Shown here in pieces: positions 2,292-51,000 of a stretch of DNA of 64,000 nt (the first letter of the stretch is position 1; every line of letters starts with the position of its first letter). The stretch comes from Bilabrum cf. latius (taxonomy: Eukaryota): contig OZ237761.1 of the NCBI GenBank assembly GCA_965178125.1, forward strand, positions 558,001 through 622,000, in the 5' to 3' direction. The notes under the pieces are model-generated. The model did no database searches, was not told where the DNA came from, and was given only the letters and a program-made list of their open reading frames with translations. The position numbers and the translations under genes are program-made.

Positions 2292-5200
2292 ATGGACGCT
2301 GTCAAACAAAAGCACGCAGCCGAGGAAAGAAAGAGGCGCGCAGAGTTTGCGTTTGTTGATCGCGGCGAAGAATTTTTCTGGATCAAGGACAGCAAAGAGG
2401 CGTTTCGCCCAGCGAAGGTTGTTGATAAGCGGAAGGACGGAGGCATGACAGTGGAATACACGGGCGGTACCAGGACAACAAAGACTGTGTCTAAGGATGA
2501 CGTAGGCCCCCGCATCTCCCGGCCGGAATCCCTTCGCGTTGAATTCGAGGACATGGTTCGAATGGAGGACGTGAACGTCGCGACCATCTTGCACAACCTC
2601 AGGATGCGGTTCAAAGCGGACCGAATCTACACTAACATTGGTGAGATACTGTTTAAGGCGATAGATGCGTCGTGCGCTCGCTCGGCTCGATTTCTCTGCT
2701 TGCACGGCACTCGAATCGCATCGCTGGTGCCGGCGTGGCACGCACTTGACGCAGCACTCTGCTAACTCCGTGCCTCACTCCCCGAGATGTGTCATCGCCA
2801 GAACCCTTGGCTCCCCCGCAGGTACCATTTTGGTGTCTCTGAACCCCTTCAAATGGATGGATGGCGTCTATTCCGCGGAAGTTGCAGAGAGGTACCTGCG
2901 ACGGCAGGTGGGCGAGCAGGTGCCGCCGCACGTGTTCGGCATCGCATCGGCCGCTTACGGAAACCTTACAAACGAGCAGGTGGACCAGGCCATCATCATC
3001 TCTGGCGAATCGGGCGCGGGGAAGACCGAGGCCACCAAGAAGTGCCTGCAATTCCTGGCCGAGGCAGCCTCTCGCGTCGCGGGGTCGTCCGAGAAGAAGT
3101 CCGGTGAGGCGGGGGGCGGTGTATCGATCGAGAAGAAGCTGCTGAACGCCAACCCGGTGCTGGAGGCATTTGGAAACGCCAAGACGGTCCGGAACAACAA
3201 CTCCTCCCGGTTCGGGAAGTGGATGGTGGTGCACTTCAACTACCGCTCCCAGATCTGCGCCTCTGAGATCATCAACTACCTCCTTGAGAAGTCCAGGGTG
3301 GTGTTGCAGGCCAACGAGGAGAGGAACTATCACATCTTCTACCAGGTCTGCCAGATCCCGTGGATGTAGCACGAGTTCGACCTCACCCACCCAGAGGACT
3401 ATCACTACACCAACCAGAGCGGGTGCATCGAGGTGCCGCGGATGAACGACAAGGAGGAGATGGAGGACGTCATGCAGGCCATGTGGGCCGTGGCAGGCAT
3501 GACGCCGCCAGCAGGAGTGCCTGCCACGGAGCGCCCCCCCGATCAGTTCGTGGGCATGGTCAGGCTCGCCGCCGCCATCCTGCACATTGGCAACGTCGAG
3601 TTCGTTCCGGTGCCAGGCAAGGAGGACGAGCAGTGCACCATCTCGTCCTCCGTGGCCTCGGAGAGAGCCATCGCGAACGCCGCTCGGATCCTTGGCGTGG
3701 ACGCCCTGGCGTTGAGGCAGTCGCTACACAAGAAGGTCATCCAGTCCGGGACGGAGCGCATCACCACGGAACTGTCGGCAGAGAGGGCTTCAGACGCCCG
3801 GAACTCGCTGTCGAGGGCACTGTACGGGCGCGCGTTCGACTGGCTCGTGCGGCAGGTCAACTCAAGCATGGTGGCTAACAAGGCCAGCTCGCAGAACATC
3901 GTGGGCATCCTCGACATCTTCGGGTTCGAAATCTTCGAGCACAACTCCTTCGAGCAGCTGTGCATCAATTTCTGCAACGAGAAGCTGCAGCAGCACTTCA
4001 ACACGCATGTGTTTAAAGAAGAGGAAAAGTGCTACATTGCAGAGGGTATCGACTACTCGGAAGTTGAGTTCATTGACAACCAGGACGTGCTGGACCTTGT
4101 CGAGAAGAAGCCGACCGGCCTGCTGGTCCTGCTCGACAACGAAGTCAAGATGGGCGCGCGCGGCACGGACAAGAACTTCATCGCGCAGGTCAACAAGTCC
4201 CACGCGAAGAACAAGAGGTTTGGCCGCGCCAAGCGCAAGCAGGGCCCCATGTACTTTGGAGTGAACCATTACGCAGGACGCGTGGACTACGACGCCGAGG
4301 GCTTTTTGGAGAAAAACAAGGACGAGTTGCTGCTCAACCTGGTGGAGCTCTGCTGCTCCTCTTCGGAGCCCTTTATGCAGATCCTCTTCTCGAAGGAGAG
4401 GGGAGGGTCCAGCGCAAGTCCCGCGGCCGGCAGCAAGAGCCCCTCCCGCAAGTCGGGCAAGAAGAGCTCGGGCGGATCGCGCAAGGAGACGCAGGCGTCG
4501 CAATTCAGGAAGCAGCTCGATGATCTGATGAAGACGCTTAACCGAACGTTCCCGCACTATATCCGGTGCGTGAAACCGAACTCGTCCAAGAAGCCCGACA
4601 TCTTCGAGGGCCCCCTCACGCTGCAGCAGCTCAAGTACGCCGGCGTGTTCGAGGCCGTTATGGTCAGGCAGCAGGGCTTCCCGTTCAGGTGGACCCACGA
4701 CGTCTTCTACAAGCGGTACAGGTGCTGTGCCTCCGATAGGGCGCGCTTCCTGGCACAGATCCCTCCCGGGGCCGATTTCAGGCAGCTGGCGACGGACCTC
4801 CTCTCCGACCTCCAGGTGGCCGACCCGCCGCGCAGACCGGAGGAATATGCCGAGCCGCTCAAGAACTGCAAGTTCGGGCGCACGATGGTTCTGTACAAGG
4901 CCGAGCCGCACCGCGTCCTCGAGACGATGAGGGACGTCACCAGGGTGCATTACGCCAGGGTGTGCCAGCGGGTGGTGAGGGGACACCTTGGCCGGTGCAA
5001 GTTTCTTGCTGTCAAGAAGGTGTACGACGCCATCAAGCACGCGATCAAGTCCAGGAACCTGGAAACGCTTGACGCCGCCATCGTGCTGGGCAAGGCAGCC
5101 CCCTTCAGGCTGTTCATTTTGCGCGAGGCATCGTCCATCCGCGAGGTGCTGGTGGCCGAGAAGAAGTGCAGGGAGGAGCTGGAGAGGGTGCGCCCGCTGG

Positions 5201-8200
5201 ACCCCGTGGAGCACTACGAGGCGTACAACGCTGCTCTGCAAGAGGCAGACAGGCTGAAGCTGATGGAGGAAGCGATCTCGCGGGAGGTGCAGGCCAAGTT
5301 TGCCTCGGTGAAGAAGAGGAAGGAAACCACCGCGGCCCTAAAGAAGGGCATCGAGCGCGGTGACAAGGCCCTCATCGAGGGTGCGCTGGAGCAGCTGGTG
5401 GACCTGGAGAAGGAGTGGGGCCCAATCGTGTCAGAGGACCAGAGGAAGCAGGCAGCCGAGACGCTCGAGATCATCCGCAAGGAGGACGAGGCGCTGCAGG
5501 GACTGCGAGACGCGCTCACTTCGCCTGAGGGCACGCTTAGAGGCAAGGTGGGCGAGCTTCTCCTGGATGGGGTCCGTTCAGAGGCTTTACATGCAGCCGC
5601 GGCCGACTGCCGCAAGCACAACATCCGCACCGATGTCGGCCTCTCGCTGATCGAAGCAGCCGACGCCATCGTGGCGATGCGCAACGCCTTCAAGGCCAAG
5701 GACAACGGCGCCATCGAGGCCGCCGTGGGGGCCGTGTCCAAGCTCAAGAAGGATGGGAGGCTGGGCCCCGAGGCGGAGACGGAGGTGGAGCTGGCCGAGA
5801 ACGAGGTCATGGACAGGAGGGTGCAGCGGGACTTCGAGGCGGCGCTGGCGCAGGGGGTGCCCTAGGGCAAGGTGGGTGCCCTGCAGTTCAAGACGGCAGA
5901 CGTGGGCCCTCTCGAGGAGGTCCTCAGGATCGGCGAATCCATGACGGACACATCAAAGCCAACGCGGATGCTCCTGGACGCTGCTAAGCTCATCCACGGC
6001 CTGCGCAAGGCTGTGTGGTCAAAGGACTGGCACAAAATGAGGCAGCAGCTCGACAAGGCTGCCGGCATGGTGGTTCCCAAGACGGCCGTCCCAGAGCTGC
6101 ATCTTGTTCAGCTCGAGGTGGATAACCGCATGCTGATCCACCAGTTGACCGAGGCGCTGTCCAAGGGAGCGGCGTCTGGGTTCGTGGGCGTGATCGAGAC
6201 GAGCGACATCGACACCACCCTACTCGAGGCGAGGCTGGACCACTGGAAGCAGGTGGGCTGGCACACGGACAAGGCCAAGGCCCTGGTTAGAGTGGCCACG
6301 ACCTTCCTCCTCCTCCGGCGCGCGCTCCGCGAGGGCGAAGAAGACGAGGCGCTCGAAGCGGCCATTAAGGAAGCAGAGAGAGCCGTGGAGGAAGGCGAGG
6401 CTGCGGCGAGCCAAGAAGGCGGCAGGACCGGTGCGGCGTCCGGTGCCGGGGCGGCCGACCCCGTGGGTATCGCGGGCAGCGGCCCCGCGGCCAAGAAGCA
6501 GGCCAAGCTCTTGCCTAGCCAGGCTGAGCAGGAGCTCCGGCTGTCCCGCTACGAGCTGGAGAACAAGAAGGTGCTCGCGGCGCTCCAGGACGCCCTGCAG
6601 CGCGGCGCTCCTCAGGGCAAGATCGGCAGCGTGGACCTCAGCAGCGTGGACATAACCCAGCTCACCAAAGCCCTGGAGCTAGCCAGCGAGCTGGGCTGCC
6701 GCACTCCCGAGGCGTGGTGGCACCGCGACGTGGGCGAAGCTCTCCTCGATATGCGCAAGTCAGTGCTCCGCGGTGATTGGGCCGGAGTCGAGTCTTGCAC
6801 CGCAGAGGTGCGGGCAATGGACGGACAGAAACCAGACGACCACAACTCGGCAGGGGGCGGCGCTGATCCCCTGCAGTTCCCCGGGGTACACTCATCCGAT
6901 ACGCAGAGGTCTAGAGCCAGCAGCGTCAACTCGATGCAGTCCATTGCGGCGCGGGCCGTAGCCAAGGCAAAGGCCGAAAAAGCTGCCGCCTCGGGCGCAG
7001 GCGCAGACGACCAGGCAGCAGCCCCTGCCGCCTCGTCTGCGCTGAGCATGTTCGCGAAGGCGGGACGTGCCGTTCGCTCTCCCAGCTTTGGCGGCTCCGT
7101 GGGCAGCGCTGGCGGAGGTCCGAAGCAGCGACCGACCGATTTCATGTTCCTACCGTCGCCCGTGCTCAACGAGCTGCAGCTGGTGCAGGACGAGCTGGAC
7201 AACAGGACCATCCTCTCGAGCGTGCAGGCTGCTCTGCTCAACGGCCGGCCCGTGGGGCAGGTGGGCGACATCGACGCGAACGGGGTGCAGGTGCAGGAGC
7301 TAGAGGTGAGCGTGTCCAAGTGCGACCGCCTCGAGCCCAAGACCGCCGTCGCGAGGCAGCACGTGGAAACCGGCGTGAGGGTGCTGCAGCTGCGCAGGGC
7401 GCTGCTGTCCGACTCATGGAGCGACGTGGAGCTCGTGCTCTCGACTCTACGGGACGACGGGCCGCTGCCCGACGGACCCAAGTCCGAGGGTGCGGTGGCG
7501 CCGGACGTGCTCGGCATGCTGACTGTGGCTCCCGTGGCGCGGGACGAGGTTATGCTCATGCGGCTAGAGGCGGGGTACAGGAAGGTCATCAAGGCGCTCA
7601 CGGACGCGCTGTCCAGCGACGGTCCATCCGGTGTGGTGGGCGACCTTGACGTATCGCGGCTGTCGGTGGGTCAGCTAGAGGAGGGCGTGGAGGTGGCCGA
7701 GCAGCACGGCACGCAGACCATCAAGGCGAGGCACCTGCTTGCCCTCGCTCGTTTCATCTGGAAGGTGCGGAGGGCTGTGCTGCAGGACAACTGGGACTCG
7801 GCCAAGGCCTTGCTGGACACGGCCGGGGACCTGCTCGGAGAGACGTCGGCTCTGCCGGTCGGCTGCGAGGTGCCTCAGCAGACCAAGTCGGAGGTGCGGC
7901 TGCTCAAGGCGGAGGCTTCCAACAGGCAGATCGTGAGCCAGGCCAGGGCCGCGCTGCAGGAAGGAGGGCCAAAGGGTGACGTGGGGCACCTGAACCTGAC
8001 CCTGATCGAGGTGCAGCCGCTCGAGGACGCCGTGGAGCAGGCCATGTGCCTGGGCCCCGCCACAGGAGAGGCGCGCTGCCTCGTGGCGACCTGCGTGCAC
8101 CTTCGTGCGGTGCGGCTGGCCCTCATGGCCGGTCAGTGGGAGAAGCTGCAGCGCTTCGTGGACTACGCGGACGGCGTGGCGAGCAGGTTCGGCGCCGGGC

Positions 8201-11200
8201 CTATCGACCCGGAGCTGCTGCGGGCCGCTGCGCACGAGGAGGAGCAGATTCAGATCAAGGAGGCTGAGGGGGATGGCGCGGGCGATAGCGACCAGCCCAG
8301 GCTGCCGCCCGCCTCGGTGCCGGCGTGGCAGCACTCCTCGGCCGGCAAGCACCTGGGCGTGCAGGGTCAGATGGGAGAGTGGGCGGTGGTGTCTAGGCTA
8401 GCAAGCGAGTCCGGCCTGGCTGCCGTGGGAGCCGCGGACCCCGTGGCCGCCCTGCCCCCTGGTGTCGCACGGCCCCTTCCCTTCGACATCGCGACGGACG
8501 GCCTCGCCAGCCTTTCTCTGGCCGAGCTGAGGGTGTGCCAGGCAGAGCTGGACAACCGTGCCATCATCGTGAAGCTCTCCGAGGCCCTCTCGAGCGGCTC
8601 GGCACAGGGTCCCACGGGCCACCTGGACGTCAGCTGCGTGGACACGGACGGCCTCGAGGATGCAATCTAGTTCGCGGAGGGGGTCGGCTGCACGACGGTG
8701 GAGGCGCGGCAGGTGCTTGCCACGGCCAAGGTGGTGGTCAAGCTCAGGGAGGCCCTCAGGTCGCACGACTGGTCCTACCTCGAGGCGGTGCTGGCGGAGG
8801 CCCACGGAAAGGTGCTCGCCAGCATTGTGGCACCAGAGATGCGGGCTGCGCAGGACGAGCTGGACAACAGGGCGGTACTGGTCGAGCTGACGCAGGCCCT
8901 GTCGCGGGGTAGGCCACAGGGCCAGACCGGCAGGCTGTACACGGGCAGCGTGGAGCTGAAGCCGCTGGAGGAGGCCATCGACATGGCCAGTCGGGTGGGC
9001 ACCAAGACCACCGAGGCGAGGCAGATGCTGTTCACGGCTCGAGTCGTCCTTCGGCTGCGGCACTCGCTGCTGGTTGGCGACCTGAACGAGGCGCAGCTGA
9101 CGCTGCAGGCAGTCCGCGGGCGGCCCGTGGCCACTGTTGCCATGTCGGAGATCCGCATGGCACAGGATGAGGTGGACAACTGGGTGCTGCTGCGCGAGCT
9201 GACGGAGGCCCTCGAGAATGGCAGGGCCAAGGGGACTGTGGGCGCTCTGGAGATCGAGGGCTGCGTGGAGACGGAGGGGCTCGAGGCGGCCATCCGCCGC
9301 GCCGAGGACAGGGGGGTCAAGACTAGGGAGGCACAGGCACTGGTCCTCGGCGCTGTGCAGGCTCTTAAGCTCAGGCGGGCGCTGCTCGCCGGCGACTGGT
9401 CCAAGGTGGAGGCGGTCGTTCGCGAGAGCGCGGGGGTGGCCGGCCTGGCGGCGCTGGCCGTGGAGGAACTCGCGCTGGCCTCGGACGAGCTGGATGACCG
9501 CAGGGTGGTGCGCCTGCTGGAGACGGCTCTGCGGCAGGGCAGCGCGAGGGGCGAGCCGGGCGAGCTAGACCTCAGTGGGGTCGACACCACCGCGCTGGAC
9601 GAGGGGCTCGCGACTGCGTCCGATCTCGGCTGCAAGACGGAGCGCGCGGAGGACCTGCAGAAGGCCGCCAAGCTGATCCGCCGTCTGAGGTCGGTGCTTC
9701 TCGCGGAGAACTGGGAGTGGGTGGCCACGGTGCTCCCGGATGCCAGGCAGGACAAGCGCGTGTTCCCCGTGGAGAGCTTGCAGGAGCTGCAGCTGGTGCA
9801 GGACGAGCTGGACAACAGGACCATCCTCGCCCAGCTGACCGCCGCACTGTCCTCAGGGGCTGCCCGGGGCGCCGTCGGCAGCATCGACGTGGACGGAATC
9901 GACACGGGCGGCCTGGACCGAGCGATATCCTTCTCCCGCCAGCTGGGGTGCAAGACGGTCGAGGCCTCTCAGATGGTCGCAACCGCGCAGCTGGTCCGGA
10001 GGCTGCGGCAAGCCCTCTCCGCGGGAGACCTGGAGCTGGCTGGAGAGCTGCTGGACGGCGTGCGCGGCAAGGTGCTGGCTGCGGCAGCCGCGGAAGAGGT
10101 GCGTGCAATCAAGCACGAAGTGGACAACTGGCGCGTGATCGGGGCGCTGACCTCGGCCGTGAGCGCGGCTGCGGAGGCTGGCATCGACGGGGACGGTGCC
10201 GGAGCCAGCGACGGCGAGGGCAAAGGCCCCGCGAGCAACAGCGCGGCTGCCCGAGCCGCGGCGGCGCTGGCCGGCTCGTCCGGAGGCTCCGATGGGGAGG
10301 GCGCCGAGGGCGGCTCGCTGGCTGTCCTCGACGCTGCCATCGCGCGCACGATGGAGCTGGGCTGCCACACGGCAGAGGCGAGGGATGCCCTCTTCAGCGC
10401 CCTCACCGTGCGCAGGCTGAGGTATGCCGTGGCCGAGGCCGACTGGGACTTTGCCGAGAAGGTGGTGGCCGAGGCAGACAGGGACTCCCACCGCCTCATC
10501 GCCGGCGCGCGGCCCCAGGTGGAGACCGTGAGGGAGGAGCTGGAGCTGCGCAAGGTGCTCAAGGGCCTCCGCAGCGCCGTGGACGCGCAGGACGAGACGG
10601 AGATCAGCTCCTTCCTGGCGCGCGGGGCGCGGCTCGGGCTGGCAGCCCACGCGAGCCAGGAGGTGCGCGCTGCGATGGAGCAGGCCTCCCTGGCTCTCTC
10701 TAGGCTGCACCGGTGTAGGTCCAGTCTGCAGGCCGGTCTCAAGGCCATGGCGGCGCCGCAGCTCGTGGACGCGCTGACGTCTGCCACGTCGATCGGGTTC
10801 CGCGGACCGTTGGTGGATGAGGCCCGCAAGGCGCTGGAGAAGATCCGCGGAGCTACCACAAGGGCGACGCAGGCCCTCCGCACTGTGGACACGGATGCGA
10901 TGGAGGCCAGCCTCCGCGAGTGCGAGAGCATCGGCCTGTCGCTTCCGCTGCTGCGCGACATTCGGGCGCTGCTAGCCCTGCCGCGACCTGTCCTGCTGCA
11001 GAAGCAGGTGCGGGCGGCAGTTGCGTAGGGCGACGCCGAGCGGGTCGTGTCAATCACCATGGAGATCAAGAGCAACTTCTTCGACGAGGGCGGCCGGCTG
11101 GACGACCCGGGCCTCAGCCTGCACAACTACGAAGAGGTGCGCCCGCCGCAGATCGTCAGCGCGTCGTACGGACTGACCGACACCACGGAGGACATGCTTC

Positions 11201-12486
11201 GCTGGTCGAAGCAGCCGATCCACAGCAGCTTCACCAGGCTGGGCGAGGACCCGGAGCTCAGGCGAGTCGCCGCCAGGTGTTTCAGAGCGGTCCTCTCCTT
11301 CATGGGAGACCGGGGCACTGCGGCCGCTGGCGCCCAGGGGCGCAAGAGCAGGTGCGTGGAGCAGGCGCAGGAGGCGCTCGCTGTGGCGCACCAGCAGGTG
11401 CCTCTACGAGACGAGCTGTTGCTGCAGATCTGCAAGCAGCTGACGGACAACCCCAGCGAGGACTCGAGGGCCCGCGGCTGGGTCCTCTTGCACGCGGCGT
11501 TGAGCAGCTTCCCACCCTCTGCCACGTTCGAAAACCACCTCGAGTGCTTCCTGCGGAGGCATGGGCGACTGGCTTCCGTTCGTGCGATGCACTTGCGCAT
11601 GTTTAAGGGCGCGGCCAAGGCGCCTGCCTCGGCGGAGCTGCTACGGAAGGCGCTCGAGCAGGCGGGGCTGCCTCCGCTGGGCAGCGCGTCTGGCTCTGGC
11701 TCTTCTCCCGGTGCCTCGACTGGGCAGGGCGGGGCCGCCGCATCTGCCGGGGGAGGGGCCGGGGCCCTCGCAGCCAGTGCGCCGAGTAGCTCGGCTGCGG
11801 AACCGCCGGCGGCGCCGGGGGCGGGCGCCGCCAACCCGTTCCTCAGCGAGATTGCGAGCCCCATCCAGCAGCCCGGCCAGAGGGGCCGAAGCAAGCTGGC
11901 GCAGGCATCGACGGGGCCCGTCGCGCCGTCCACGTCCGCGGTCGGGCGACGATCCGGTGGTGCGGTGGAGGGCAAGTCACAGGACTCCACCGACGAGAGA
12001 CAGCGCGGCGCTGGCGCGCCTCAGCTGCAGCCCGCTCCTGGACCCGTCGTGGCGGGTGGCTTGGGTGCGGATGGCAAGGGGGAGGTGCCTCACTTGGAGC
12101 GGAGGGACTCTAGCGACTCGGTGAGCGAGCTTCAGGGCGACTCGGACGTGTCGTTCGCCCGCTTCAAGCCCGCGAGCGCCCGGGCGGCGGACCGGCATGA
12201 CTCGGTGGACATTCAGCTCGAGCAGGCGCTCTCCACCGTGGCCGACTCGCTGCGGCCGTCGTCCAAGCGGACCCCGCCCGCGGCTTCGAGGCAGGAGCAG
12301 GGGTAGGCTAAGGCATCGGACGCAGGGAGCGGAGCGTACCCGGTGAGCAGCATCCGCGACCTGCAAGCGCACGGCTAGGGTGGCCCCAGCGTTCGGTCCA
12401 GCTAGGGTGCGCAACGTTAGGCAGGTACGTCCGGCAAGCTGGATCGCTTAGCTGCGCTTCGAGCATCGCTTGGCAGCTTTGATTGA
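2292..12486 (+). CDS. Giant unconventional myosin (~3,337 aa): motor, IQ, long helical repeat tail, C-terminal MyTH4; intron 2641-2821; 8 in-frame TAG
   Basis: Motor motifs GESGAGKT, NNNSSRFGK, ILDIFGFE and HYIRCVKPN. IQ-like motif QRVVRGHLGR. MyTH4 motif LRDELLLQICKQLTDNP...RGW. GT..AG intron restores YTNIG/TILVSLNPFK. TAGs at 3367, 5863, 8668, 11026, 12304, 12376, 12403, 12418; true stop TGA 12484-12486. Confidence 0.93.
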
Positions 12487-13845: not shown

Positions 13846-13923
13846 AACATAAAAGTATATCTTAAAGTGTTTCCTCCTCGACAATGGCTACCCTATCTGA
13901 GTAGACCGGAACACGCCTTGCGA

Positions 13924-15337: not shown

Positions 15338-15648
15338 GACGTGAGGGCCACCGCGCAAAAGTGGGCCGATTCCGATGGGTCTGGTTAGGCAGTTTGTTGC
15401 GTTCTGTTTGATGATCGTGGGTGGAACGGGGCTTGCGGGTGGTAAGGGGCTTCTACCATTGATGCACGCACCTTTCCGGTACAGTCAAAGCAGACGAGTA
15501 TCGACCAAATATCTACACGCAAAAGTAGCCCACTCGAACTTCCACATGTGGCCTACCACCTCGCCAGATGGTGGTGGATTGCGACCATCAGCGAGAAATC
15601 CGGAGTCGATACTGCTTCAGCAAGCGACCAGACAGGCACCGAACAGGC

Positions 15649-34088: not shown

Positions 34089-38189
<4,101 letters not shown>

Positions 38190-38261
38190 TGTGTTGGTAC
38201 GTGTAGATAGCACAAACTTTCGGACTGGTGGTTGCGACAAGAGAATGAGAACGAATTATCA

Positions 38262-38902: not shown

Positions 38903-39017
38903 AACCAGTTGAATGCATGTATGGCAATGTCAAGCCGCACTGATTGCAGGTTCAATCGAATCTGAATTCTTGTCACACATGTGCAGACACATGAGGCAAA
39001 CGCACAGTACGACGCAC

Positions 39018-42000
39018 TCACGCGCGAGCTCCCTCACGCGCTCCTTCCTCTTCCGACTCGCTGTCCGCCCCGTTTGCCGAAGCAGCCTGCTGGCCAGCCC
39101 CCGCTGACCCAGCGGCGGCCGACCCTTCCCCGGCAGGAGCCGGCGCGGCCATGGCCTCCCTCAGCACGCCAACCACGCTGGGGAATGCGAACCACTCGGG
39201 GATGGCCTCCCCCGCCCTCATCCTCCTCCTGAACTCTGTCCCCGAGAGCTTCTGCACCTCTAGCCCCTCCGCCTTTGCCTCGCTCTCCGGCACGAAGCCC
39301 TTCTCCTCCGTGTACACCACGTTCTCGAACGTCTCGACGGTCACGCCTAGCTCGCTCGCGAACTGCTCCGCCATCACCTGCGCGTCATAGGGCCCGTGGA
39401 AGTCCTCGCCAGTCACCGTGCTCTTGGTGCCCGCCATGTCCCGCCCCACCACAAAGTGCGTCGCCCCGAAGTTCTTGCGGATGAGCAGGTGCTGGAGGGC
39501 CTCCCTGGGCCCCGCCATGCGCATTGAGTAGGGAAGGTATCCCCAGGTGATGCGCTCGTGCGGCCTCTCCCTCTGCAGTGCCTCGTAGGTTGCGATCCTT
39601 AGGGCAGGGTCGATGTCGCCCGGCTGGGTGGGCCCAGTGGTCAGGTGCACCATCATGCGTGCATCCTCGCCTTGCTTCTCGAGGGCGCGCAGCACCAGCT
39701 GGTAGTGCGCCTGATGCAAGGGGTTGCGGGCCTGGAAATACACGATGGGGGTGTCGCTTGGCCCGCTGGGGGTCATGCCGTGCATCGCCCTCACCTCCTT
39801 AGGAGTGTAGAAACGAGAGGCTGCCGCGGACCTGAACTCCTCCGCGGCCTCGGCGGACTCACCGAACCCAGCCGCCTTGGCCAGCCCGTCGGGCAGCGAG
39901 GGAACAAGGTCGGGCATCTCAAGACCGTGGAGCTTGCCGCCCACGTACACCGGGCCAGTGCCCTCGAAAAGATCAAAGACACCGGGATGGTCCATGCGAG
40001 TGGTGCCAAACAGGTGGTGCGCTTCCTTGACCTTGTCCGGCTTCCACACGTCTGCCACGTCCAGCACCGCCACGTGCTTGCCCTTGTAGGCGAGGACGAT
40101 CCGATCCCCGTCCTTGACTCGCTTTGCGGCCGCATCGGGCAGATCCAGGTTCATAGGCATGGGCCACAGCTGCTGCTCGGGCAGCCGCATGTGCTCCAGG
40201 ACACTCGTGTACTCTTCCTAGTTCATGAAACCGGTCAGCGGGGAGAACCCGCCGGACAAAAGCTGAGCAACAGACGTGGCCTGTCTCTCCGACAGCTCCC
40301 ACGTCACTCCAGAGAGGTCACCATCCTCTGTGCGGGCCGCCACATCTGCGAGCAGGTCTTGCTTCGCCTTGGCCGCCACTGCTCGTTGCTCGGGTGTGGC
40401 ATCGGGTGAGGCGGCCTCGGACCCGCCCACCATGAGATCTACCAGCTTGCCGCCGTGGGGCTCCCCGGGGATTGCCGCCCTGGTGTGGATCCCGCACTCG
40501 GTGTTTTCGTACCTCACGAAGCGGCCCGCACGCTCTGACTCGTGGGGGTACACCGGCACCGTTGTGTGGATGTCACCGAAGCTCTTGTACACGAAGACGT
40601 GCTCCGAGGGCGGGCTGCCCCTCAGTTCCTTCCGGCTCGCTCGCCAGTACGGCTTGCCAAGGTCGAATTTTTTCCAAGGGAGCGCCTCAGGCTCGTGCCT
40701 GGTCCTGGGGCACAGCCACTCGTCGTGCCTCCAAACGTAGTTGTGCGCCTTGTTGACGGGCACGTCGTGCTCATCCACGTATGCGAGCACATCCTCGAGA
40801 GACCACGACGCCATGGGATTGAAGATCTTGCGGTCTGCTTCCCATGCGTCCAGCTCCACCCGGGCGTTCCCCTGGTCTCGTCGCCTGCCGGTGATGAGGA
40901 TCTCCTTGCCCACGTCGGACAGCACGCGGTTGAACGGCTCCACCTTGGAGTGCTGGTCAAAATCCGCGTGCGAGATGGCTTCCCTGTGCCCGTGCACCCT
41001 CTCAAAATCCTCCATGGTCTCCAGTCCGATGGGCTTATACACTGTGGCCTCCCTCTCATACCTCTGCTGCATGCGAGCCATGAGCTCGTGCGTCTCGGGG
41101 AAGAGGTGGAGGGTGTCCACGGCTGCGGGGGAGAGCGGGAAAAGCAAAGAGAGTTGTGGAACGAATAGAAGCGTAGGTACGTGAATACTAGTTGGAGGCG
41201 GCCTGAACTGGAATGATCCTTCGTGCAAGACAAGTCTTCGCGTTTCGCCAATGGCTCGAGAGGCCGTGGCATCTGGCGTTCGGAAGCCACTGCAAGCACG
41301 ACGGCAGACTACCCATGGCATCATGCTGTATGTTAGCAGACAGTCATGCCTTGGATGGGTACAGCAGTCATTCGCTCGAACCCAAGGGGCCAAGGGGCAA
41401 GGCCCCGTCACACGGTTGCAAAAGGGCAACGAGTCTGCCCGCTTGCTACAAACTGATGAATTTCTCACCTACCCAGGCCATCCCGTCAAATACCTTCGGC
41501 GCATGTTTTTTAAACAAGTCCACAATCACATTATCCGTGTGAAGCCACGCTGCGAACAAAAGAGGGAAATTGCGAGGCGATACGGGTCCGTGGCAGTGAC
41601 AATGACATGCCTTCTGCCAATGCCCTTGACTAAAATGCGTCACGTCGAGCAAGGTATTATATAGTATTCGTAAATCTACATATATAATCATGACGAAGCG
41701 CCAGATCGAGCCTAGCATTGCGCGTTATGATGCGCGCCAACGCAGGGCACCAGCCAGACATGCCGACGTGTTCCAAGCCCGGCAAGTCGGGCAGACCGCA
41801 AAAAACACCGCAAAATTCGCATGCTCCCCTATCTCACCAGTCGCAAATGCTACACCCTTCCCATCTGCTGGCAGGTGGGCGCTGACCAACTCCTTGAACT
41901 CGGCTTCGAGGTCCTTGAGACGGGCCTAATCACCAGAGGCAGTGCTCGACGCAAATGACCTTGAGTAGGTTGCTGCACGCCGCACGACCCCGGCTTGACG

Positions 42001-42045
42001 AAATCGCGACACCAATGACCTAGTCTGTTGGGACAAACGCTGCAT
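39018..42045 (-). CDS. APS/PAPS reductase-ATP sulfurylase fusion with mitochondrial-type presequence; introns 41550-41837 and 41123-41468
   Basis: Spliced AFATA/WLHTD...VA/VDTLHLFPET, ITGRRRDQ, KIFNPMASW, ERAGRF, ECGIH (reductase). Then PHGGKLVDL, GFSPLTGFMN(TAG)EEY, FQARNPLHQAH, VGRDMAG (ATP sulfurylase). TGA stop. Confidence 0.92.
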
Positions 42046-42204
42046 TGTAGCTGTTGATAGCCTTCGATAGTGAGCCAAGTCAACGACGCGACAAGTTGCA
42101 ATGCAGTTCCGGTTACAAGTCGCGCGTTTCGCCGCGGCAAGGCGATGCACCCACGGCTGCGACCCACGATGAAACGCTGAAGGGGCTGTATCACAAGGAA
42201 TAAC

Positions 42205-45200
42205 ATGCTAACTTCCGATCAGCTACGATATGGGCTAGCAGGAATGGCCGGAACAATTGCAGTAGGCACTATCGTCCAGCTAGTGCGCGGTATGCAGGCC
42301 AAAAATGCGAAGCAAGCGGGGCGCGTCATCGGTGAGGGCGAAACTCGTCTTCAGTCGAGCAAGGCCCGCTACCACGACGTATTTGCAGATGGATCGTCCG
42401 CTATCGAGGTAACCAGAAAATACATGTAAGTGCGTTGGAAGAGCTGTGACTGTTTCGTGGACTGGCTAAGATTTTGTCGAATCCATGGGCCTCGGCGCCA
42501 GCCCCCTGTGCTGTGGTGACGGCTACGAACCACTCGTGTCAAATTGTCAAAAGCCGGGCTACAGCGCCACCGTACTCTGTGTAATTATGCTGTTGTACTA
42601 TCGTGATAGTAGTGCTGCTACAGTTGCCGTGCAACTCTCCGTTCCATCGAATCTGCTACACCTCCGTGACCTCTCGCAGCGACCAGAGCTTGCCAAGCAC
42701 CATCGAAGTAGCCCGATCTGGGACTCAGCCCGACCAAGCTAGGCCACTTGTGGTCATTAGAGGAGCCGGAAGCGACGGTGCCGCGCTCCTAGGCCCGCTC
42801 GCATCCAAGGCCGCGCTCGATGCGGCAACCTCCCGCGGCGTGGCGGGGCACGTCGAGGGCGTGCTGTCCGCTGGAGGCCGGGTCCTTCTCGCGGGCGGAG
42901 CGGCCGCCGCGGGCGCCCTCGCCGATGGAATCGAGCTCGCCGGCAAACCACTGGAGGCGAGCAGCATTGCGGCCGTTCTCGGAGCAGGTGCTCCGCGGCC
43001 CGCGCAGGGCCTCGCTTGGGTCCCCGACGCTGCCGCCGCCGTGGCCCTCGCCCGGCGGCTGGACCTGGCCGGTTCCGCAATGCGCGGCGTCCGTGTGGCA
43101 CTCGCCGAGACCGTGGAGGAAGCGCGCCTGGCTCTGCCTGGCGTGGGTGCCGCCGCCGCCGCCGCCAGAGGGGCCGCCGCGGGGTCGGTGCTGTTCGTCC
43201 GGGACGGAGCAGGATCCGTGGTGCTTCCTCTCGAGGGAGCCGGCGAGCCGGACGTGGAAGGCGGAGGTGCGGTGGAGTACAGCGGCCACAAGCGGGCGGG
43301 AGTGGTGGTCGTTGTCCCCGCCGTGGGGACGCTCGCCCTCGCGGGGGCAGCGGACGCGCTGGCCGCCTCCAGGGAACTGCGCGTGGGCGTGCTGCGCCTG
43401 CGTGCAGTGCACCCGTTCCCGGCCGACGAGGTCGCAGCAGCCCTCCGCGGGCTGGGCACCAAACCGGAACTGCTCGTGTCCCTGCAGGACTGGACCTCGG
43501 CGGTCCCCACAGGACTAGGGGGCGATGGCGCCGGCCTCGTGTTTGGCCACCAGGATCGAGACGGGGCAGGCGCGGCGGAAGAAGGCGATGAAGACGAGGA
43601 CGAGGACGGGCAGGACGGCAGCAGCGGGGGCATCGAGGACGAGTCCAAGGCCGAGGGCAAGACCGGCGGCGGCGGCGAAGACGAAGAGCATCACGGCGCG
43701 GCTGGCGGTGTGACGAGTGCGAGCGCCGTGTCTCTCGCCAAGGATGAGGACGCTGCGGGACGCGTTGAGGCCGCGTCCGCGCTGGCCTGGCTGCGCGGCG
43801 CCGTGCAGGCCGCGGCCGGTTCCGCTCACGCCGTGTCGGCCGTGGCGCTCCCCGCCCGGGAGTGGGGCCGGGCGCGGGGGCTCCGTCGGCTGCTGGGTGT
43901 GGCATCGAGCAAGCTCACCGATGGTAGCAGCGGGGGGGGCTCCACTGGAGCGGCTGCCGACGTGCAGGCGGTCGCGGGCGAGGTGGTGGCAAGCCGGGGG
44001 ATCGAGGTCGTGAGGCTGCTCGCGGCGCCTGGTTCCGCAGAGCGCGGCGCCGAGGTAGCCGTGGGCGTTGCAACGAGCGGCTCCGCACTCGCGTTTGAGG
44101 CGGGCCTGGCTCCGTGGGCGAGCAACGCTGGCGTGCACCTGCAGTGGCGGGCGCTGGCAACGCGCACCGTTGGTGCGAAGACCCGCCCTCTGTCTGCCTC
44201 GGCTGCGGCCTTCCTGCTGCTGCTGGCCCCCCCCACGGAGATCCTGCTGGTGGACGACCTAGAGGTGGCGGGTTCCGCTGATCTAGGCGCCGCGCTTGGT
44301 TCCGCAGAGGGCGCCGCGCGGCTCCGGATCGTCGATGAGAGGGCCGCCAAGCGCGTGGTGGAGGCGAGGCGCTCCGTGGCTCTGGCCAACGGGGGCACCG
44401 GCGAGGACGGCGGCGATGCGGGAGGGGAAGAAGGGGGGCCGGAAGGAGGTGCTGCTGGTAGTGCTCTCGAGTCGTTGTTGTCCAGAGAGGACGCGGCCTG
44501 CCTGGCAGTCACCGAGGGAGTCGGGCAGAAGGCGCTGGCCCTCTACGCTGCGACCACCCCTCGCATGTCCGTTGAGTTCTCGGGCGGAAGCACAGCCCCC
44601 CTCGGTGCATTGTTGTCTCTAGGAGGCCCTCAGGACGTGCTGGCAGGAGCGGGCCGCGCCAGGACGCTGGTACTAGACGCGGAGGAAGCCGCGGAGGAGG
44701 CGGCCAAGGCGAAGAAGGAGGCCGAGGAGGCCGGCCCCGAGGCGCTGGACGGCTCGGTTCTGGTCCAGAGGGCGCTGCAGAAGGGCGGGCTGGGCGCTTC
44801 ACCGGTCCGCATGAGCAGCGGGCTGTCGGTGGCGTCGGGTGGGACTTCCTCGGTCCCTCCCCTGGCCGATTTCGCGCCCAAGATCGCGGTCAGCGCGCAT
44901 GCCGTGCTCGGACTCAAAGCCGCGGGCCTGGCCGCGGTCGTGGACCCCGAGGCAAAGGCACTGCACGACGGTGCGCTGGGCGTGCTGGGCAGCAGCTCGG
45001 GGATCGAGAGGGACACGGGCTCGAGAGTTTGGGCCGAGGGGGAGCTGGAGGAGATGCTGGCGGAGGGGGGACCAGGGGAGGGCAAGTCCTCGGCAGGGGG
45101 CAGCAGCGGCTCGACGGGGTCGCCGGCCGCCGGGGCGGGGGCGGGGGCGGCTGCGGGTCGGTCGGTGGCTGGCTCTGTCGCGAGCACGGCTCGTCTCTCC

Positions 45201-46883
45201 CGCTCCCTGCGCCTTGTTCCCCTGAGCCAGGGCATCATCTTGCACTCCGCCGCTGCGGCCGATGCGCTTGAGGGCCTAATCCCTACGAGCGCGGTGGCGG
45301 CGGCGTGGGCGGTGGCCGCCGCGGCGTCTGCGTCCAGTGGCCTGGCTCCGGCTCCCGCGTCTGGAGCGGGCACCGACGCGGCCGGTGACGCAAAGCAGGC
45401 GCCTTCCGCGTCGGTGCTTGCCGCCTGGCCGGCCCCGCGATCCGCGCTGCCTGTCGCCACCCTCGCTCTAGAGGAGCAGGCAGCCAAGGAGGCGGCCGAA
45501 GCAGCTGCAGAGGACGCCGACGGCGAGGGCGTTCCCCTGGGCACCAAACCACCGGCCCCGCCCAGCGTGGAATCGAGCCTCAAGGCGGGCGGGGAGGCGC
45601 CCAGGCACCCCGCCATGCCGCTCTTGTTCCCCGAGTCCTTCGGTTCAACGGTGCGGGCGCGACCCGCCGAGGAGGAGGAGGTGTTCGTGGTCAAGGTGCA
45701 GGCCAAGAAGAGGCTCACGCCGGCCGAGTACCAGCGCAACATCTTCCACATCGAGTTCGACACGCGGGGCACCGGGCTCAAGTATGAGATCGGGGCGGCG
45801 CTGGGCGTGTTTGGCCACAACGACCCCAAGGAGGTGGACACGTTCCTGCGGTGGTACGGCGTGGACGGCTCTAAGGCGGTGACCCTGCCACCGCCTGAGC
45901 TCATGGCAGAGGGCGGCGCGGCTCGCGAGCTGCCCCCCGGGTGCGCAGAGACAACGACAGTGCGGAGGGCCTTCACCCAGGTGCTGGACCTGTTCGGAAA
46001 GCCGGGCAAGGCATTCTATGAGAAGCTCGGTGCGTACGCCACGGACGTGGACGAGCGGGTGAGGCTGTTCTATTACGCCACGCAGGAAGGCAAGGAGGGC
46101 TTCCGCAGGCGGGCGGAGGATGAGAACGTGACCTACGCTGACGTGCTGCAGGAGTTCCCATCGGCCTAGCCCCCGCTGCTCGACCTGCTGACGCTCATCC
46201 CCGCGATCAAGCCGAGGCACTACTCCATTGCATCATCGCAGAGGGTTCATCCAGGCTCCGTGCATCTGCTGGTGGTGCTGGTGGACTGGAAAGACTCGCG
46301 GGGCAGGCCGAGGACGGGTCAGTGCACGAGGTACCTGGAGGGGCTGACCGTGGGGGAACAAGTGGCGGTATCCATCAAGCCGTCCGTGATGCTGCTGCCG
46401 CCCGACCACCGGTCCCCCGTGGTGATGGCGGGCCTGGGCACCGGCATGGCACCATTCCGAGCCTTCATCGAGGAGCGGGCGTGGTTCAAGCAGCAGGGCC
46501 AGGAGGTGGGTCCCATGGTGCTGTACTTTGGGGCGAGGCACAGGCACGAGGAGTACCTGTATGGCGACGAGCTGGACGCGTACCATAAGGAGGGAGTGCT
46601 CACGGGCCTGCGCCTGGCCTTCTCTCGCGACCAGCAGCAGAAGGTGTACATCCAGCACCTGATGATGCAGGACCGGGAGATGCTGGCCGAGCTGCTGCTA
46701 GACGAGGTGGGCAAGCACAGGGGGGGCAGGTTCTATCTGTGCGGGCCCACCTGGCCGGAGGGCCCGGTGCAGGATGCCATCGAGAAGAGTTTCCGGGAAG
46801 CCCGCGGCATGAGCGAGCAGGAGAGCGCGAGCACCGTGCAGCAGCTCAAGGAGGACGAGAGGTACATCCTCGAGGTGTACTGA
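42205..46883 (+). CDS. MET10: Sulfite reductase [NADPH] flavoprotein (alpha) subunit, MET10-like; intron 42426-42679
   Basis: RLTPAEYQRNIFHIEFD, KPRHYSIASS, GLGTGMAPFR, YFGAR, FYLCG, C-terminus YILEVY-TGA. PFOR-like LRAVHPFP region. One TAG at 46167. GTAAGT..CAG intron keeps the frame. Confidence 0.88.
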
Positions 46884-47067
46884 GGCACTTAAGGGAGGTC
46901 GTGGGTTTATGTAGTGTTCTACTCCATTCTTCTTCGCACACGTGGCGATTATCTCTTTCGCAGCGTTTCGGACTTGTTTGGCCAATAAAAGTGAACGCAA
47001 CTTTAGATGCGAAAACCAATTTTTCGCCCGTTGGAGTTGTGCGAAGAATTTGTGCAATCAGTGGACT

Positions 47068-49980
47068 ATGGATCAGCTACCTACTACGTTTAAGCGCTCA
47101 ATAGCACCTCCAAATACTGGATTTGGACGCAGCGATCGGGCGGGCGTGTTTATCGGGCGTGATGATGAGCAAGCTCCGCTTGATTTGATGCGGCAGATGG
47201 AGTAGGAGGAAGCAGCTCGATTTGAACGGAAGAGACAGATGCGCGAAGAAAAACGAGCCACTCGCAGGCGTTCTAAGGCTGCTGTTCCAACCAAGCAAGC
47301 TTCGGATGAGCAAATCCCAGAGCCTCCGAAACGCAGCGCGCCGAGTGCGCCTGCTTGTTCGCAAGAGCTAGCGGATGCGACGTCCACAGCGCTGAAATCA
47401 TGCGCTTGTGCAGAGGAAGACAAGGCAGAAGAATCGCGGCAAGCAGCTGGCGGAAGCCCAGGCCAAACGCCTGGGCCTCTCGGCGCGGACGCTGGAACAC
47501 CACCAGCCGAGAGCAAGGCGCCTGGCTTGGACTACTAGGCATCAGATGCAGCTCATCCTGATTTCAGCGTAGCAGACATGGAGAAACCTACAGAAGAGAC
47601 ATAGCACGATTAGGTTGAGCCCCAGGCCGCCGCCTGCGAGATAAACGAGGAGAGGGGGCCGGCCGAGCCTGAGGAATGTAGCGACGACGCCAGCAGTGCC
47701 AGTGCCGCTGGCAGTGCCAGTGGTGATGCCGATGGCAACCCCGACGGAGCAGAGGAGCACGGCACGGCCCGGCTGCTTCAGTCCACGGAAGAGCGTCTCC
47801 GCATGCAGATCCGCACGGCCTACAACAAGGCAGAGGCCGCCCGCCGCGAGATGATCGCGCTTGAGAGCCAGCACGAGCGGCAGATCCTCACGCTCAAGCG
47901 GCAGCTGCAAGGAGTCAGGCGAAAGTACAACACACTCCGGGCGGCGGCCTCGGACCCCGAGAAAGAAGCCATCCGGAGGATCGAGGAGGCGCAGCGAACC
48001 TTCATGAAGCAGAGGCAGCAGGCAGAGGAGCGCACCGCAAGGGACCTCATGAGGGCCCACGCGGCGGGGGCGGCGGCCGTGGCACAGGCCCGCATGCTCG
48101 CAGCCAAGCGGTGCGCCAAGGTGGCCAAACAGGCGGAGCAGGGCGCGGCGGAGAGCCAGGCAGACGCCGAGGCCCGGCTAGAGGCGGTCCGCGAGGAGTG
48201 GGAAGACATGCTCTCGGCGGCCAAGCGGGCACACGAAGAAGACGCAGCCAAGTGGGAGGACAGGGCACTGCTGCTGCAGGAGCAGCACGACGCGGAGGTG
48301 AAGGCCCTCAGGGAACAACGGGAGGAGGGGGTGAGGCGGGCGCATGAGACCGCCGCCGCCGCGGTAGAAGCCGCCAAGGAACAAGCGAGGGTGGCCAGGG
48401 AGCAGGCCGAGAGGCAGGCCACCGCTGCCGAGGAGCAGGCCAGCGCCAAGGTCAGCGAGGCATCCCTGCAGGCCCAGAGGTAGCTCGAGGCGGCCGAGGC
48501 AAGGGCGGCCGCAGAGGTGGCTAGGGTGGAGCGCCAGTACGCAGAGGCCCAGGCTCAAATGCGGGAGGAGCACAGGCAGGCCATGCAGCAGGCGGCAGAG
48601 GCCAAGCGGGCCTCGGTGTACCGGGCCCGCGACTCGGAGGCGGCTCGCGCCAAGGCCGCCGTGGAGCAGGCCAGGAAAGAGGGGTCCACCAGGCTGCGGG
48701 CGGCCGTGGAGGCCAGGGAACAAGCGGAGCGGGAGCTCGAGGAACAGCTTGAGGAAACGAGGGGCAGGGCACAGCTGGCCGAGCGCGCGCTGGAAGAGGC
48801 CAGGGGGACCTGGCAGCAGGAGAGGAACTCCCTAGAGTCCGGTCTGAAGGACTCGCGGGAGGAAATTGCGAGGATGCAGGCAGAGCTAGACCACGCACGT
48901 GCCGGTTCGGAGGCCTAGAGCCTGCGCGAAAAGGAGCTGCAAGAGAAGATCCAGGGCCTGAGAAGCAGCGTGGAAGCCTTAAAGACGGAGAAATCGAAGC
49001 TCCAGGGAGAGCTAGAGGCTGCGAGCGCAAGTCTACAAGAGGAAAAGGACGCAGGAGCGGCTGCAGACCGCGAGAGAGACGAGTCCGAGGGCGTGCTGCT
49101 GGCCCGCATAGACGCTCTCGAGAAGCAGCTCCAAGAGGCCAACGCTGGAAGGGACATGGAGAGACAGAGGGCGGACGCAGCCGTGGCGGCGGCTGCGGCA
49201 CGAGAAGAAGGTGCCAAGCAGGCCAAGGACGGGCAGAAGCTGGCAGAGCAAGACGCCGGGCACGCGAGGTCTCAGCTGCTGGCGCTGGGCAAGCGCGTGG
49301 AAGTGCTGAGCGGAGTGCTGCAAGAGGCCAAGAGGAGAGGAGAGCTGTCTCGCGCCATGCAGGACCGGGCCTCTGCGGGACTTCTAGAGGCGGAAAAGGA
49401 GGCTGCGCTTGCGGAGGCGAGGCGGCTGGCGGCAGAAGCAGGCGAGCTGGCCGGTCACCGCAATCCTCAGCAGCGGATCAAGTACGTGCAGCAGCTCAAA
49501 CAGGAGAACCATGAGCTAAGGCAGCAGTTGGTGCGACTCAGGGCCAGGACGAAGTCTGCTTCTGCTGCCGGCAAGAAGCGATCCGGGAGTAGGGGTGCTG
49601 CTCCCGCTGGGGCTGGGGCTGGTGTTGGGGGTGGTGCACCATCGGTACACAAGGCAAGTGCGGCTTCCCAGGGTAGCTCCTTCGGTTCTTCCATTGCCGG
49701 GGAGGGTGACAATGGGGGAGTAGATTCAGTTCCGGTGTCTTAGATCGCCGGATCCATCGGGGCTGCTCTTGAGGGGGCCGAGGCGTGCGTGAGGGAGTCG
49801 GGGGCTGCACCAAGTTCCGGGGCCTCTGTCGTGAAGAGGATCCGGTTAAAGGTCAAAGGTGGGGCAAAGAGTGGCGAGGTAATAGGCAAGGGGAAGGTGG
49901 CAGGCCGGGAGTCGGGAGCAAGCAGGGGATTGCGGGCCACGCAAACGAATGTTCGTGGACGTTTCGCGGGACGATCCTGA
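47068..49980 (+). CDS. Long coiled-coil protein with HMMR/KIF15-type C-terminal motif (~970 aa)
   Basis: One frame through several TAGs. LAGHRNPQQRIKYVQQLKQENHEL matches the HMMR_C-type motif. TGA at 49978. Confidence 0.8.
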
Positions 49981-50353
49981 ATCAGATTCTTGATGGAGGT
50001 TTCAACGCGACCTCTTTTTTGTGGCTCTGTCGTCGAACTGTAGCAACAGACACATTTTTTGACTCGGCTGCGCATTTTGTGGCGGACTTCCGGTGCGACC
50101 ACGCGTTGCGACTGACTGCGACGCAGCGAACCGAAGTGCTTGATTCGTCGACGGTTCACCAGCGACTTAATTCTCTTCATTTCGAAGCCTAAATGGATCC
50201 AGCTCCTGCACCCCCTGCGGCTGGCGCTGTCCGCGTTGCAATTGGAGGCACTAACGGATTCCCTGAGTAAGACAAGCGGTCGATGCATCGGTTCGACTGG
50301 CAGCTGCGCTACTTAGGCCTATTTCGGAATGCAGAAGATCGCTAGTCCTGCCG

Positions 50354-51000
50354 ATGCAGCAAAGCCAGAATGCTTCCGCGCAGTCTCCGTTGGATCCTTC
50401 TTTTATTCTCAGAAAGGATGGCATGGTGCTCGTGCACGATGCTATCAGGCGTGACTTTCCCAGATTGATTGCAGCTATAGAGAAAGCCAACCCAGACCAA
50501 GACTGGTAGTTTCGCAACTTGGCCGAATGGTACGTGAAGTACTTCCAAGCTTCCGTTCATTCACACCATGGTTAGCATACTTTATCGCTTTGTGCACTTT
50601 TCATGATGATTGATGCAGGACCCGAGCAATTCACGCGCTGCAGGCTCCCCAACCCACCAACCTTCCCTCGAATCTCGTGCAGCTCGCCACGAAACATACC
50701 CCTCACGCCCCCAACGATCCACAACCAACCCCAAATACGATGTTCCTACTTTGTCTCACAGACGTCGAAGAGGAGGTGTTCTACCCTTGGCTCAGCAAGC
50801 GATGCACAGTCCCTGCGAAGATGACGACCGACCACGGCGACCTTCTCGAGAGGATGGCGAAGATAGAAGAGGGCCTCCTTGCCCTCGTGAAAAAGTCCTG
50901 CGGCGGGACTGCAGCCGACAGCACATCGGCTGCCGACATGCAGGCAGCCCGCCGGGCTGCCATCCCCGTGCTGGCGGGCCAGGTGCGTGACCTTGAGGCC
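50354..51000 (+). pseudogene. Hemerythrin-like (HHE) domain gene, 5' part, interrupted by the viral element; intron 50571-50761
   Basis: MVLVHDAIRRD...VHSHHD/VEEEVFYPW...MTTDH. The frame runs directly into the poly-C end of the AT-rich element. Confidence 0.75.

Follow-up and report, generated by a model that had tools for sequence, protein, structure and literature searches.

What does TAG mean when it lies inside the genes of a eukaryote, and which codons then end those genes? The question is raised by a stretch of 64,000 nucleotides (contig OZ237761.1 of the Bilabrum cf. latius assembly, positions 558,001 to 622,000; the whole stretch is called the window), in which TAG recurs in frame in GC-rich genes and in the genes of an adjoining AT-rich, virus-like element. 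The earlier note on this DNA had proposed that TAG stands for Gln while TAA and TGA remain stops. Our analysis makes it very probable that TAG is read as Gln, with TGA and TAA as terminators, in the nuclear DNA of a GC-rich, intron-poor eukaryote, and the window is a new case of a known, rare code variant in which UAG alone is reassigned to Gln (the pattern of NCBI table 15).

Bases 1 to about 51,100 of the window have a GC content of 55–70%, and the part beyond is about 30% GC except for a GC-rich block at 52.6–55.1 kb. Translation of the GC-rich part with table 11 yields fragments only. With TAG taken as a sense codon, nine open reading frames (ORFs) of 3282, 1559, 1501, 1309, 874, 1383, 835, 1426 and 1023 amino acids appear. 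Across 13 GC-rich ORFs (14,830 codons) we counted 78 in-frame TAG codons, spread over 12 of the 13, and not a single TAA or TGA. The two off-frames of the same ORFs together contain 229 TAG, 86 TAA and 495 TGA, which corresponds to 114.5, 43 and 247.5 expected per frame, and the Poisson probability of finding none in frame is 2e-19 for TAA and 3e-108 for TGA. All 13 ORFs are closed by TGA, which is thus a stop codon in this DNA. Since TAG occurs in frame, TAA and TGA never do and all 13 ends are TGA, TAG alone acts as a sense codon. The ORF starts were set mechanically, and a few of the 78 TAG codons may fall outside the true coding sequence: at least the first 135 amino acids of the ORF for a PAPS-reductase and ATP-sulfurylase (ATPS) fusion, with one TAG at amino acid 19, are intron or untranslated region, and further 5' exons exist for the myosin and the MAP-kinase-like gene. 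Much of what the earlier note had described is borne out by these counts, namely frames broken only by TAG and host genes ending in TGA (13 ORFs by our count, where it gave 12). The motifs that it quoted are all found in the sequence (GFMNxEEY, WGWQIFxAIE, and GVPxGKVG beside GAPQGKIG and GRPQGQTG), and the ankyrin gene does contain 16 TAG codons and end in ...GGGCCIVS, a CaaX motif, followed by TGA.

The genes of the GC-rich part are listed here by position in the window and strand.

2791–12486, plus strand: myosin (Pfam: Myosin_head, a long repeat tail and MyTH4); 8 TAG, TGA stop; a 5' exon probably lies upstream.
12607–13914, minus strand: ORF of 435 amino acids without a family match; 4 TAG, TGA stop.
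13924–15350, minus strand: MAP-kinase-like gene; no TAG, TGA stop; the last exon matches Pkinase profile positions 99–263.
15568–20247, plus strand: ankyrin-repeat protein; 16 TAG; CCIVS (CaaX) directly before TGA.
20343–24848, minus strand: protein of 1501 amino acids with a BPL_N-like segment; 12 TAG, TGA stop.
25055–26191, plus strand: short-chain dehydrogenase (SDR), nearest matches chlorophyll b reductase-like; 4 TAG, TGA stop.
26362–30291, minus strand: repeat-rich protein of 1309 amino acids; 8 TAG, TGA stop.
31489–34113, minus strand: fusion of an NAD-epimerase-like and a CbiX-like part; 2 TAG, TGA stop.
34089–38240, minus strand: GH47 alpha-mannosidase; 9 TAG, among them those at 37860–37862 (aa127), 36528–36530 (aa571) and 34884–34886 (aa1119).
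39018–42053, minus strand: PAPS-reductase and ATPS fusion; a TAG at 40218–40220 (PUA domain) and one in exon 1; TGA stop.
42603–46883, plus strand: PFOR-like protein with FAD_binding_1 and NAD_binding_1, an architecture like that of a sulfite-reductase flavoprotein; 1 TAG at 46167–46169, TGA stop.
46909–49980, plus strand: coiled-coil protein (HMMR_C); 8 TAG, TGA stop.

The genes of the GC-rich part are nuclear genes of a eukaryote, and they contain spliceosomal introns bounded by GTGAG..CAG; two of these lie in the ATPS fusion gene, which we modelled with exons at about 42053–41838, 41549–41469 and 41122–39018, and the MAP-kinase-like gene has two more upstream exons in other frames. Conserved domains continue across or beyond the TAG codons. 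In the fusion gene, the PUA domain contains a TAG (aa436) and the ATPS domain sits downstream of it. The catalytic domain of GH47 lies downstream of the TAG at aa571 and spans that at aa1119, and the FAD- and NAD-binding domains span the TAG at aa1189 and reach the ...EVY end that is typical of the family. The frame statistics, the domains downstream of TAG and the spliced contigs that keep TAG, presented below, all support TAG as a sense codon.

One may then ask whether TAG could be a sense codon and a stop at once. In an ambiguous code, as proposed for Condylostoma, karyorelicts and Amoebophrya sp. Kv, TAG would be Gln inside genes and a context-dependent terminator elsewhere. Genes ended by TAG are invisible in the window, because read-through simply continues to the next TGA, and some TAG codons do lie near C-termini, four of them among the final 60 codons of the myosin and one just 6 codons ahead of the TGA of the SDR gene. 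Those C-termini that can be checked, however, sit at TGA: the CaaX motif of the ankyrin-repeat protein, the conserved ...YILEVY of the PFOR-like protein, and the end of ATPS, which is ...ARA or ...GRA followed by TGA both in the window and in a metagenomic relative, L112 (see below). As TGA closes all 13 ORFs and none of them requires TAG as a stop, we regard an ambiguous code as unlikely.

The identity of the residue is best approached through the AT-rich element, which gives the strongest evidence for TAG as Gln. Its main features are as follows.

51100–64000, no strand assigned: AT-rich (about 30% GC) virus-like mobile element with 9 ORFs, running off the window.
52600–55111, plus strand: GC-rich insertion inside the AT-rich element, with an ORF of 725 amino acids at 52619–54796 (5 TAG, TGA stop, no family match).
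56331–59108, plus strand: primase-helicase (Prim-Pol, PriCT_2, helicase); 19 TAG, TAA stop.
60987–62510, minus strand: family-B DNA polymerase (DNA_pol_B_2); 5 TAG, TGA stop.

A HMMER search with the 925-residue primase-helicase, its 19 TAG positions entered as X, returned 3,962 relatives, and 149 of the 150 matches listed were aligned. The protein ends at aa925, aligned to residue 926 of P0361 (933 amino acids). Among the matches listed, the TAG at aa577 (58059–58061) stands in a column whose non-gap rows are all Q (146 of 146; 149 sequences aligned), and that at aa440 (57648–57650) in one with Q in 82 of 149 rows. The invariant column recurred in 80 IMG/VR loci that were found separately, where aa577 is Q in 79 of 79 high-scoring segment pairs. 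For the variable columns we used an empirical-substitution classifier, which holds, for each residue type of the query, a profile of the homologue residues taken from the same alignment. On the 17 usable TAG columns it placed Q first, followed by E (-0.9) and K (-1.65). When sets of 17 positions that truly hold E, K, N, D, R, L, I or T were resampled, Q was called in 0 of 300 trials for each residue, and a single time in 300 for S. Of 100 trials with sets of 6 true Q positions, 70 returned Q. The two closest homologues among the matches listed gave a consistent picture, with Q at 5 of 18 and 4 of 17 TAG sites, the level seen at genuine Q codons (27–29%), compared with 0–7% at other residues. 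For P0361, the closest of all, the figures are 5 of 18 at TAG sites, 27% at true Q codons and 0–5% at K, E, D, N, R and S. One 107-residue match, P0506 from the public protein library, was left out of the alignment; it is 99% identical to primase residues 121–227 and spans the stretch between two TAG codons, an example of how gene callers with the standard code fragment such genes.

Host genes add to this evidence in two ways. Human ER mannosidase I has Q at both of the GH47 TAG sites that can be aligned, aa571 and aa1119. Furthermore, metagenome contigs scanned with an alignment of the ATPS family gave 80 loci, including L112, a contig of 3,281 nt and 57% GC that is syntenic with the window (the ATPS C-terminus, then GH47). 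The two share 82% amino-acid identity over 186 residues of the ATPS C-terminus, with a nucleotide identity of 80% in ATPS and 70% in GH47. L112 has in-frame TAG codons of its own, one in ATPS, which terminates with TGA, and four in a 906-codon GH47 ORF that contains no TAA or TGA. Two TAG codons of the window GH47 gene, at aa127 and aa571, are CAG in L112, both in conserved contexts. The in-frame TAG codons of L112 place the code variant in more than one species, and the reassignment would therefore be older than the split of at least two species. A six-frame screen of metagenome loci L081–L160 for ORFs gained by reading TAG as sense was uninformative, as it was swamped by spurious ORFs in GC-rich bacterial DNA.

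Several observations weigh against Gln, and most would fit a rival reading in which TAG is a sense codon for another residue, namely Glu, Lys or Arg. UAG means Glu in peritrich ciliates and in Blastocrithidia, and the TAG column of ATPS, aligned with MAFFT at fast settings, is 76% Glu (E 91, K 11, Q 11, R 3, S 3 and N 1 of 120 homologues). The only well-aligned reciprocal pair between the two contigs has a TAG of L112 opposite GAG (Glu) in the window; six more pairs lie in poorly aligned stretches and were left uncounted. In the myosin motor the TAG column is variable (R 33, K 23, A 15, L 8, Q 7 of 120), in the SDR it is dominated by Ala at aa208 (A 98, R 9 of 120; the five nearest R, V, A, S, V), the TAG in the FAD domain aligns to R in rat CPR, and one in the epimerase-like part aligns to S in 3ius. 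Scored by naive log-odds against a general background, four host columns put R (2.4) and K (0.6) above Q (-1.2), and the 17 element columns put K (7.7) and N (4.6) above Q (3.8). The latter score favoured K because the AT-rich family is rich in K and N and because its pseudocounts under-penalised the invariant column, and it was replaced by the classifier, whose own margin is small and whose Q model is built on just 13 positions. Lastly, in e177, a GIY-YIG-like ORF of the element (52056–52589; 5 TAG in 177 codons, no TAA or TGA), two TAG codons stand opposite Ile in 4 of the 4 related loci, and another residue replaces the motif Glu. The loss of this Glu suggests that e177 may be a degenerate or repurposed domain.

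These points have to be set against a column with Q in 146 of 146 and 79 of 79 cases, a frequency of Q at the TAG sites of the two closest homologues that matches true Q codons, a calibration in which true E, K, R, N and D sets were never called Q, the two TAG–CAG pairs with L112 and the Q at both human GH47 sites. At the ATPS site itself, the 8 rows with NGGFSPL among 25 rows inspected hold Q in 5, K in 2 and R in 1 (a count by eye). Most host TAG columns are variable and, taken alone, show no preference for Q; the host columns as a whole are suggestive without deciding the matter. We consider Glu, Lys or Arg quite improbable. The assignment of Gln in the earlier note is supported by the invariant column, the calibrated classifier, the TAG–CAG pairs and the human GH47 enzyme. 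The examples that it gave turn out weaker than it had taken them to be: E prevails in the ATPS column, and the column of the myosin repeat holds a mixture of residues. The GH47 site is Q in the human protein.

If TAG is Gln, TAA might be Gln as well, as in NCBI table 6, and simply be rare because of the high GC content. Consistent with that reading, and a further point against ours, no host gene of the window terminates with TAA (0 of 13), and for this reason we only infer that TAA is a host terminator. Yet CAA, the neighbouring Gln codon, is used 140 times in the host genes, in which TAG makes up about 11% of Gln codons, and TAA is not used once in frame. In the 30%-GC element, the nine ORFs (2,667 codons) contain 49 CAA and 38 TAG codons, TAG accounts for about 38% of Gln codons, and neither TAA nor TGA occurs in frame, compared with 165 and 100 expected per frame; TAA instead terminates seven of the nine ORFs, and TGA the other two. 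The TAA of the primase ORF falls only a few residues from the point at which its closest listed homologue, P0361, ends. As CAA is used in both the host genes and the element and TAA is never in frame in either, we reject table 6, which appears very improbable. The proposal that both TAA and TGA stay stops thus stands directly for TGA and indirectly for TAA, from its absence in frame and its role at the ends of element ORFs.

All of the above presumes that the letters TAG are real and reach the messenger RNA. Ten public sequencing runs contain part of the stretch, and four contain all sampled words (X2–X4 among them). We compared the contigs of four runs (X1, X5, X6 and X7) with positions 31400–50000 of the window. 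Contigs of X5, X6 and X7 (runs of two studies) pass directly from 41122 to 41469 and from 41549 to 41838, and the skipped segments are GT..AG introns on the minus strand; the DNA run X1 has no such joins. Contigs with two spliced introns are RNA-derived. A spliced X5 contig reads through the ATPS TAG at 40218–40220 with no difference from the window, and across four genes 17 TAG sites lie within the X5 contigs listed, again with 0 differences. X5 contigs also cover 31400–33982 (the epimerase/CbiX fusion) and 47078–49462 (HMMR_C) with 0 differences each, and the sole difference reported in the compared stretch, at 38383–38388, is intergenic. A point on the other side is that the run labels are guesses. 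X5 bears the label 'RNA? (probably DNA)', no run is recorded as RNA, and an RNA origin is proved only by the spliced contigs. A check for CAG in transcripts had been suggested in the earlier note, and the spliced, RNA-derived contigs keep the TAG letters. Assembly or sequencing error and editing can be set aside. The weakest alternative, that there is no code change and that the TAG codons are assembly or sequencing errors, edited sites, pseudogene lesions or unrecognised introns, can point to the introns that do exist, the mechanical starts and the TAG at aa19 of the ATPS ORF in intron or untranslated region, but it is barely credible given frames broken by TAG and never by TAA or TGA, contigs of X1 and X5–X7 that agree with the window, spliced contigs that keep TAG, conserved domains on both sides of the TAG codons and the same pattern in the relative L112.

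We now return to the element, in which the replication module of the Polinton-like or virophage-like type is present (DNA_pol_B_2, Prim-Pol, PriCT_2), along with a DUF5872/DUF5754 protein and several ORFs without a family match. No capsid, penton, packaging ATPase, protease or integrase was detected by Pfam in the seven small ORFs tested (no structure-based search was made), and the element continues past base 64000. Like Polinton-like and virophage-like elements, it forms an AT-rich island amid GC-rich host DNA and has a polymerase of the protein-primed type, a primase-helicase, relatives of about 30% GC and a GC-rich insertion with direct repeats. A scan of viral contigs with the primase as a single protein gave no match, and an alignment-based scan of IMG/VR viral contigs with the primase family yielded the 80 loci mentioned above, on contigs of 15–28 kb with a median GC of 0.30. 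None of these 80 relatives has an in-frame TAG within the primase match, and in this the window element, whose genes carry TAG, differs from the Polinton-like viruses. From the 0 of 80 relatives against 38 TAG codons in the element it follows that the window copy acquired its TAG codons in a host that reads TAG as Gln. In a standard-code host, these codons would lead to mistranslation.

Several repeats and insertions mark the AT-rich part. The GC-rich insertion, about 2.4 kb long, has exact 81-nt direct repeats at 52806–52886 and 55031–55111, and a 21-nt match to its start recurs at the end of the window (63979–63999), which may mark the start of a second copy. The insertion is probably a mobile element of the host type with the AT-rich element as its target; AT-rich Cafeteria elements carry GC-rich retrotransposon insertions. 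A motif of about 40–50 nt (GTTTAAAAT..TTAAA.., ATAT-rich) lies directly 5' of the starts of the primase, e100 and e181 (56284–56333, 59121–59170 and 62976–63025) and, inverted, upstream of the polymerase (62520–62556). By its placement, it looks like a shared promoter of the element. An AT-rich direct repeat of about 190 nt is found three times (51184–51368, 56003–56191 and 63653–63840; 61–96% identical in pieces, with spacings of 4,823 and 7,650 nt), and these repeats may mark the boundaries of units within the element or have a regulatory role in it.

In the host part, genes for sulfur assimilation adjoin at 31489–46883, with the PFOR-like and FAD/NAD gene head to head with the ATPS fusion. 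The PFOR-like and FAD/NAD protein presumably resembles the fungal sulfite reductase alpha subunit, and the PAPS-reductase and ATPS fusion has an Arg/Ser-rich N-terminal extension. The epimerase-like and CbiX-like fusion lies near these genes, within the same interval, and we take its CbiX-like part to be of the siroheme chelatase type. Recent internal duplications are seen elsewhere: in the ankyrin gene (window 16900–17100) a stretch of about 32 amino acids (DGAPASGSRSSFSHMRIASSKD.RAAVRDA) occurs twice in tandem, and the 1309-residue protein (26362–30291) contains two pairs of near-identical modules of about 100 amino acids.

How might such a code work and spread? A tRNA-Gln with the anticodon CUA would be expected to read UAG, probably alongside an eRF1 with weakened recognition of UAG. 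A tRNA scan of the 64-kb window found no tRNA gene, an Rfam scan of it gave no family match, and eRF1 is not among its genes. The TAG codons may have arisen mostly from CAG by C-to-T changes and spread as a synonymous, AT-richer Gln codon. Translated by the host system, the integrated AT-rich element with its primase-helicase and family-B polymerase would then have come to depend on the variant code. The organism of L112 would share this code, with a reassignment that took place before the split of at least two species.

To which lineage does the host belong? The best homologues of the window genes, at 40–55% identity, come from dinoflagellates, stramenopiles, rhizarians and green algae, and the GC content of the host DNA is about 60%. 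The ATPS fusion is common to the named dinoflagellate matches (about 50% identity). In a FastTree phylogeny of ATPS, the query falls in an 18-sequence clade (support 0.947) within a 29-sequence clade that holds a Chloropicon sequence, and the named dinoflagellates lie outside the latter. Named myosin matches are scattered over stramenopiles, chlorarachniophytes, a labyrinthulomycete and plants, and the nearest SDR matches include one that is named chlorophyll(ide) b reductase by its source. By GC content and homology, nothing in the window fits a ciliate or a fornicate.

In the account given by PMC11687900, a change of UAG alone to Gln, with UAA still a stop, is described for the fornicate Iotanema spirale, the ciliate Protocruzia tuzeti and two phyllopharyngean ciliate lineages. 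The window shares with these TAG as Gln, TAA and TGA that are not sense codons, and the uncoupling of UAA from UAG; it differs in a genome of about 60% GC, in long, intron-poor genes and in homologues that are neither ciliate nor metamonad. A further comparison is offered by Amoebophrya sp. ex Karlodinium veneficum, an alveolate for which in-frame stops are reported in about half of the genes, with GT/AG introns and UAG thought to be Gln (PMC12005148); the window ATPS fusion is of the type found in the named dinoflagellate matches. The genome of this Amoebophrya is, however, much more AT-rich, with all three stops in frame and an ambiguous code according to the same source, unlike the window with no TAA or TGA in frame in 14,830 codons. 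As a source of the window DNA it was excluded on the basis of this AT-richness and the three in-frame stops, as given there (PMC12005148). Other UAG-only changes listed in PMC11687900 concern an uncultured rhizarian (Leu), Scotinosphaera (Ser), phyllopharyngeans (Leu) and the ciliate PL0344 (UAG to Glu, UAA to Lys). In these, too, UAG has changed without UAA following, but the residue is different, and Leu, Ser and Glu are not supported in the window. Among viruses, crAss-like bacteriophages recoded from TAG to Gln ('code 15') are described in PMC9523058. Like the window element they are mobile or viral genomes with many in-frame TAG codons read as Gln; the code of these phages differs from that of their host, whereas the element matches the variant code of its own.

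Our search of full-text papers found no GC-rich non-ciliate organism in which UAG alone means Gln, which does not prove that none has been described. It is possible, at somewhat short of an even chance in our estimation, that the window represents an undescribed, independent origin of UAG-only reassignment to Gln in a GC-rich non-ciliate protist or algal lineage, shared by at least two species and adapted to by an endogenous virus-like element. According to PMC11687900, non-ciliate nuclear code changes are few, and those with UAG changed and UAA still a stop are fewer. Such cases bear on the question of whether UAA and UAG must evolve together by way of their common recognition by eRF1 and wobble. 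A GC-rich case is informative here, because codon capture under AT pressure is not obviously applicable where TGA is the preferred stop. On a practical level, standard-code gene callers fragment the genes of genomes like this one.

The AT-rich element has a double value in this context, serving as an internal control for the meaning of the codon and as a test case for how a variant code may shape the host range of viruses and mobile elements. According to a giant-virus catalogue (PMC13524828), every confirmed isolate comes from a host with the standard code. If the window does represent an independent origin, its element would be a mobile or viral element of eukaryotes that is confined to hosts using a non-standard nuclear code.

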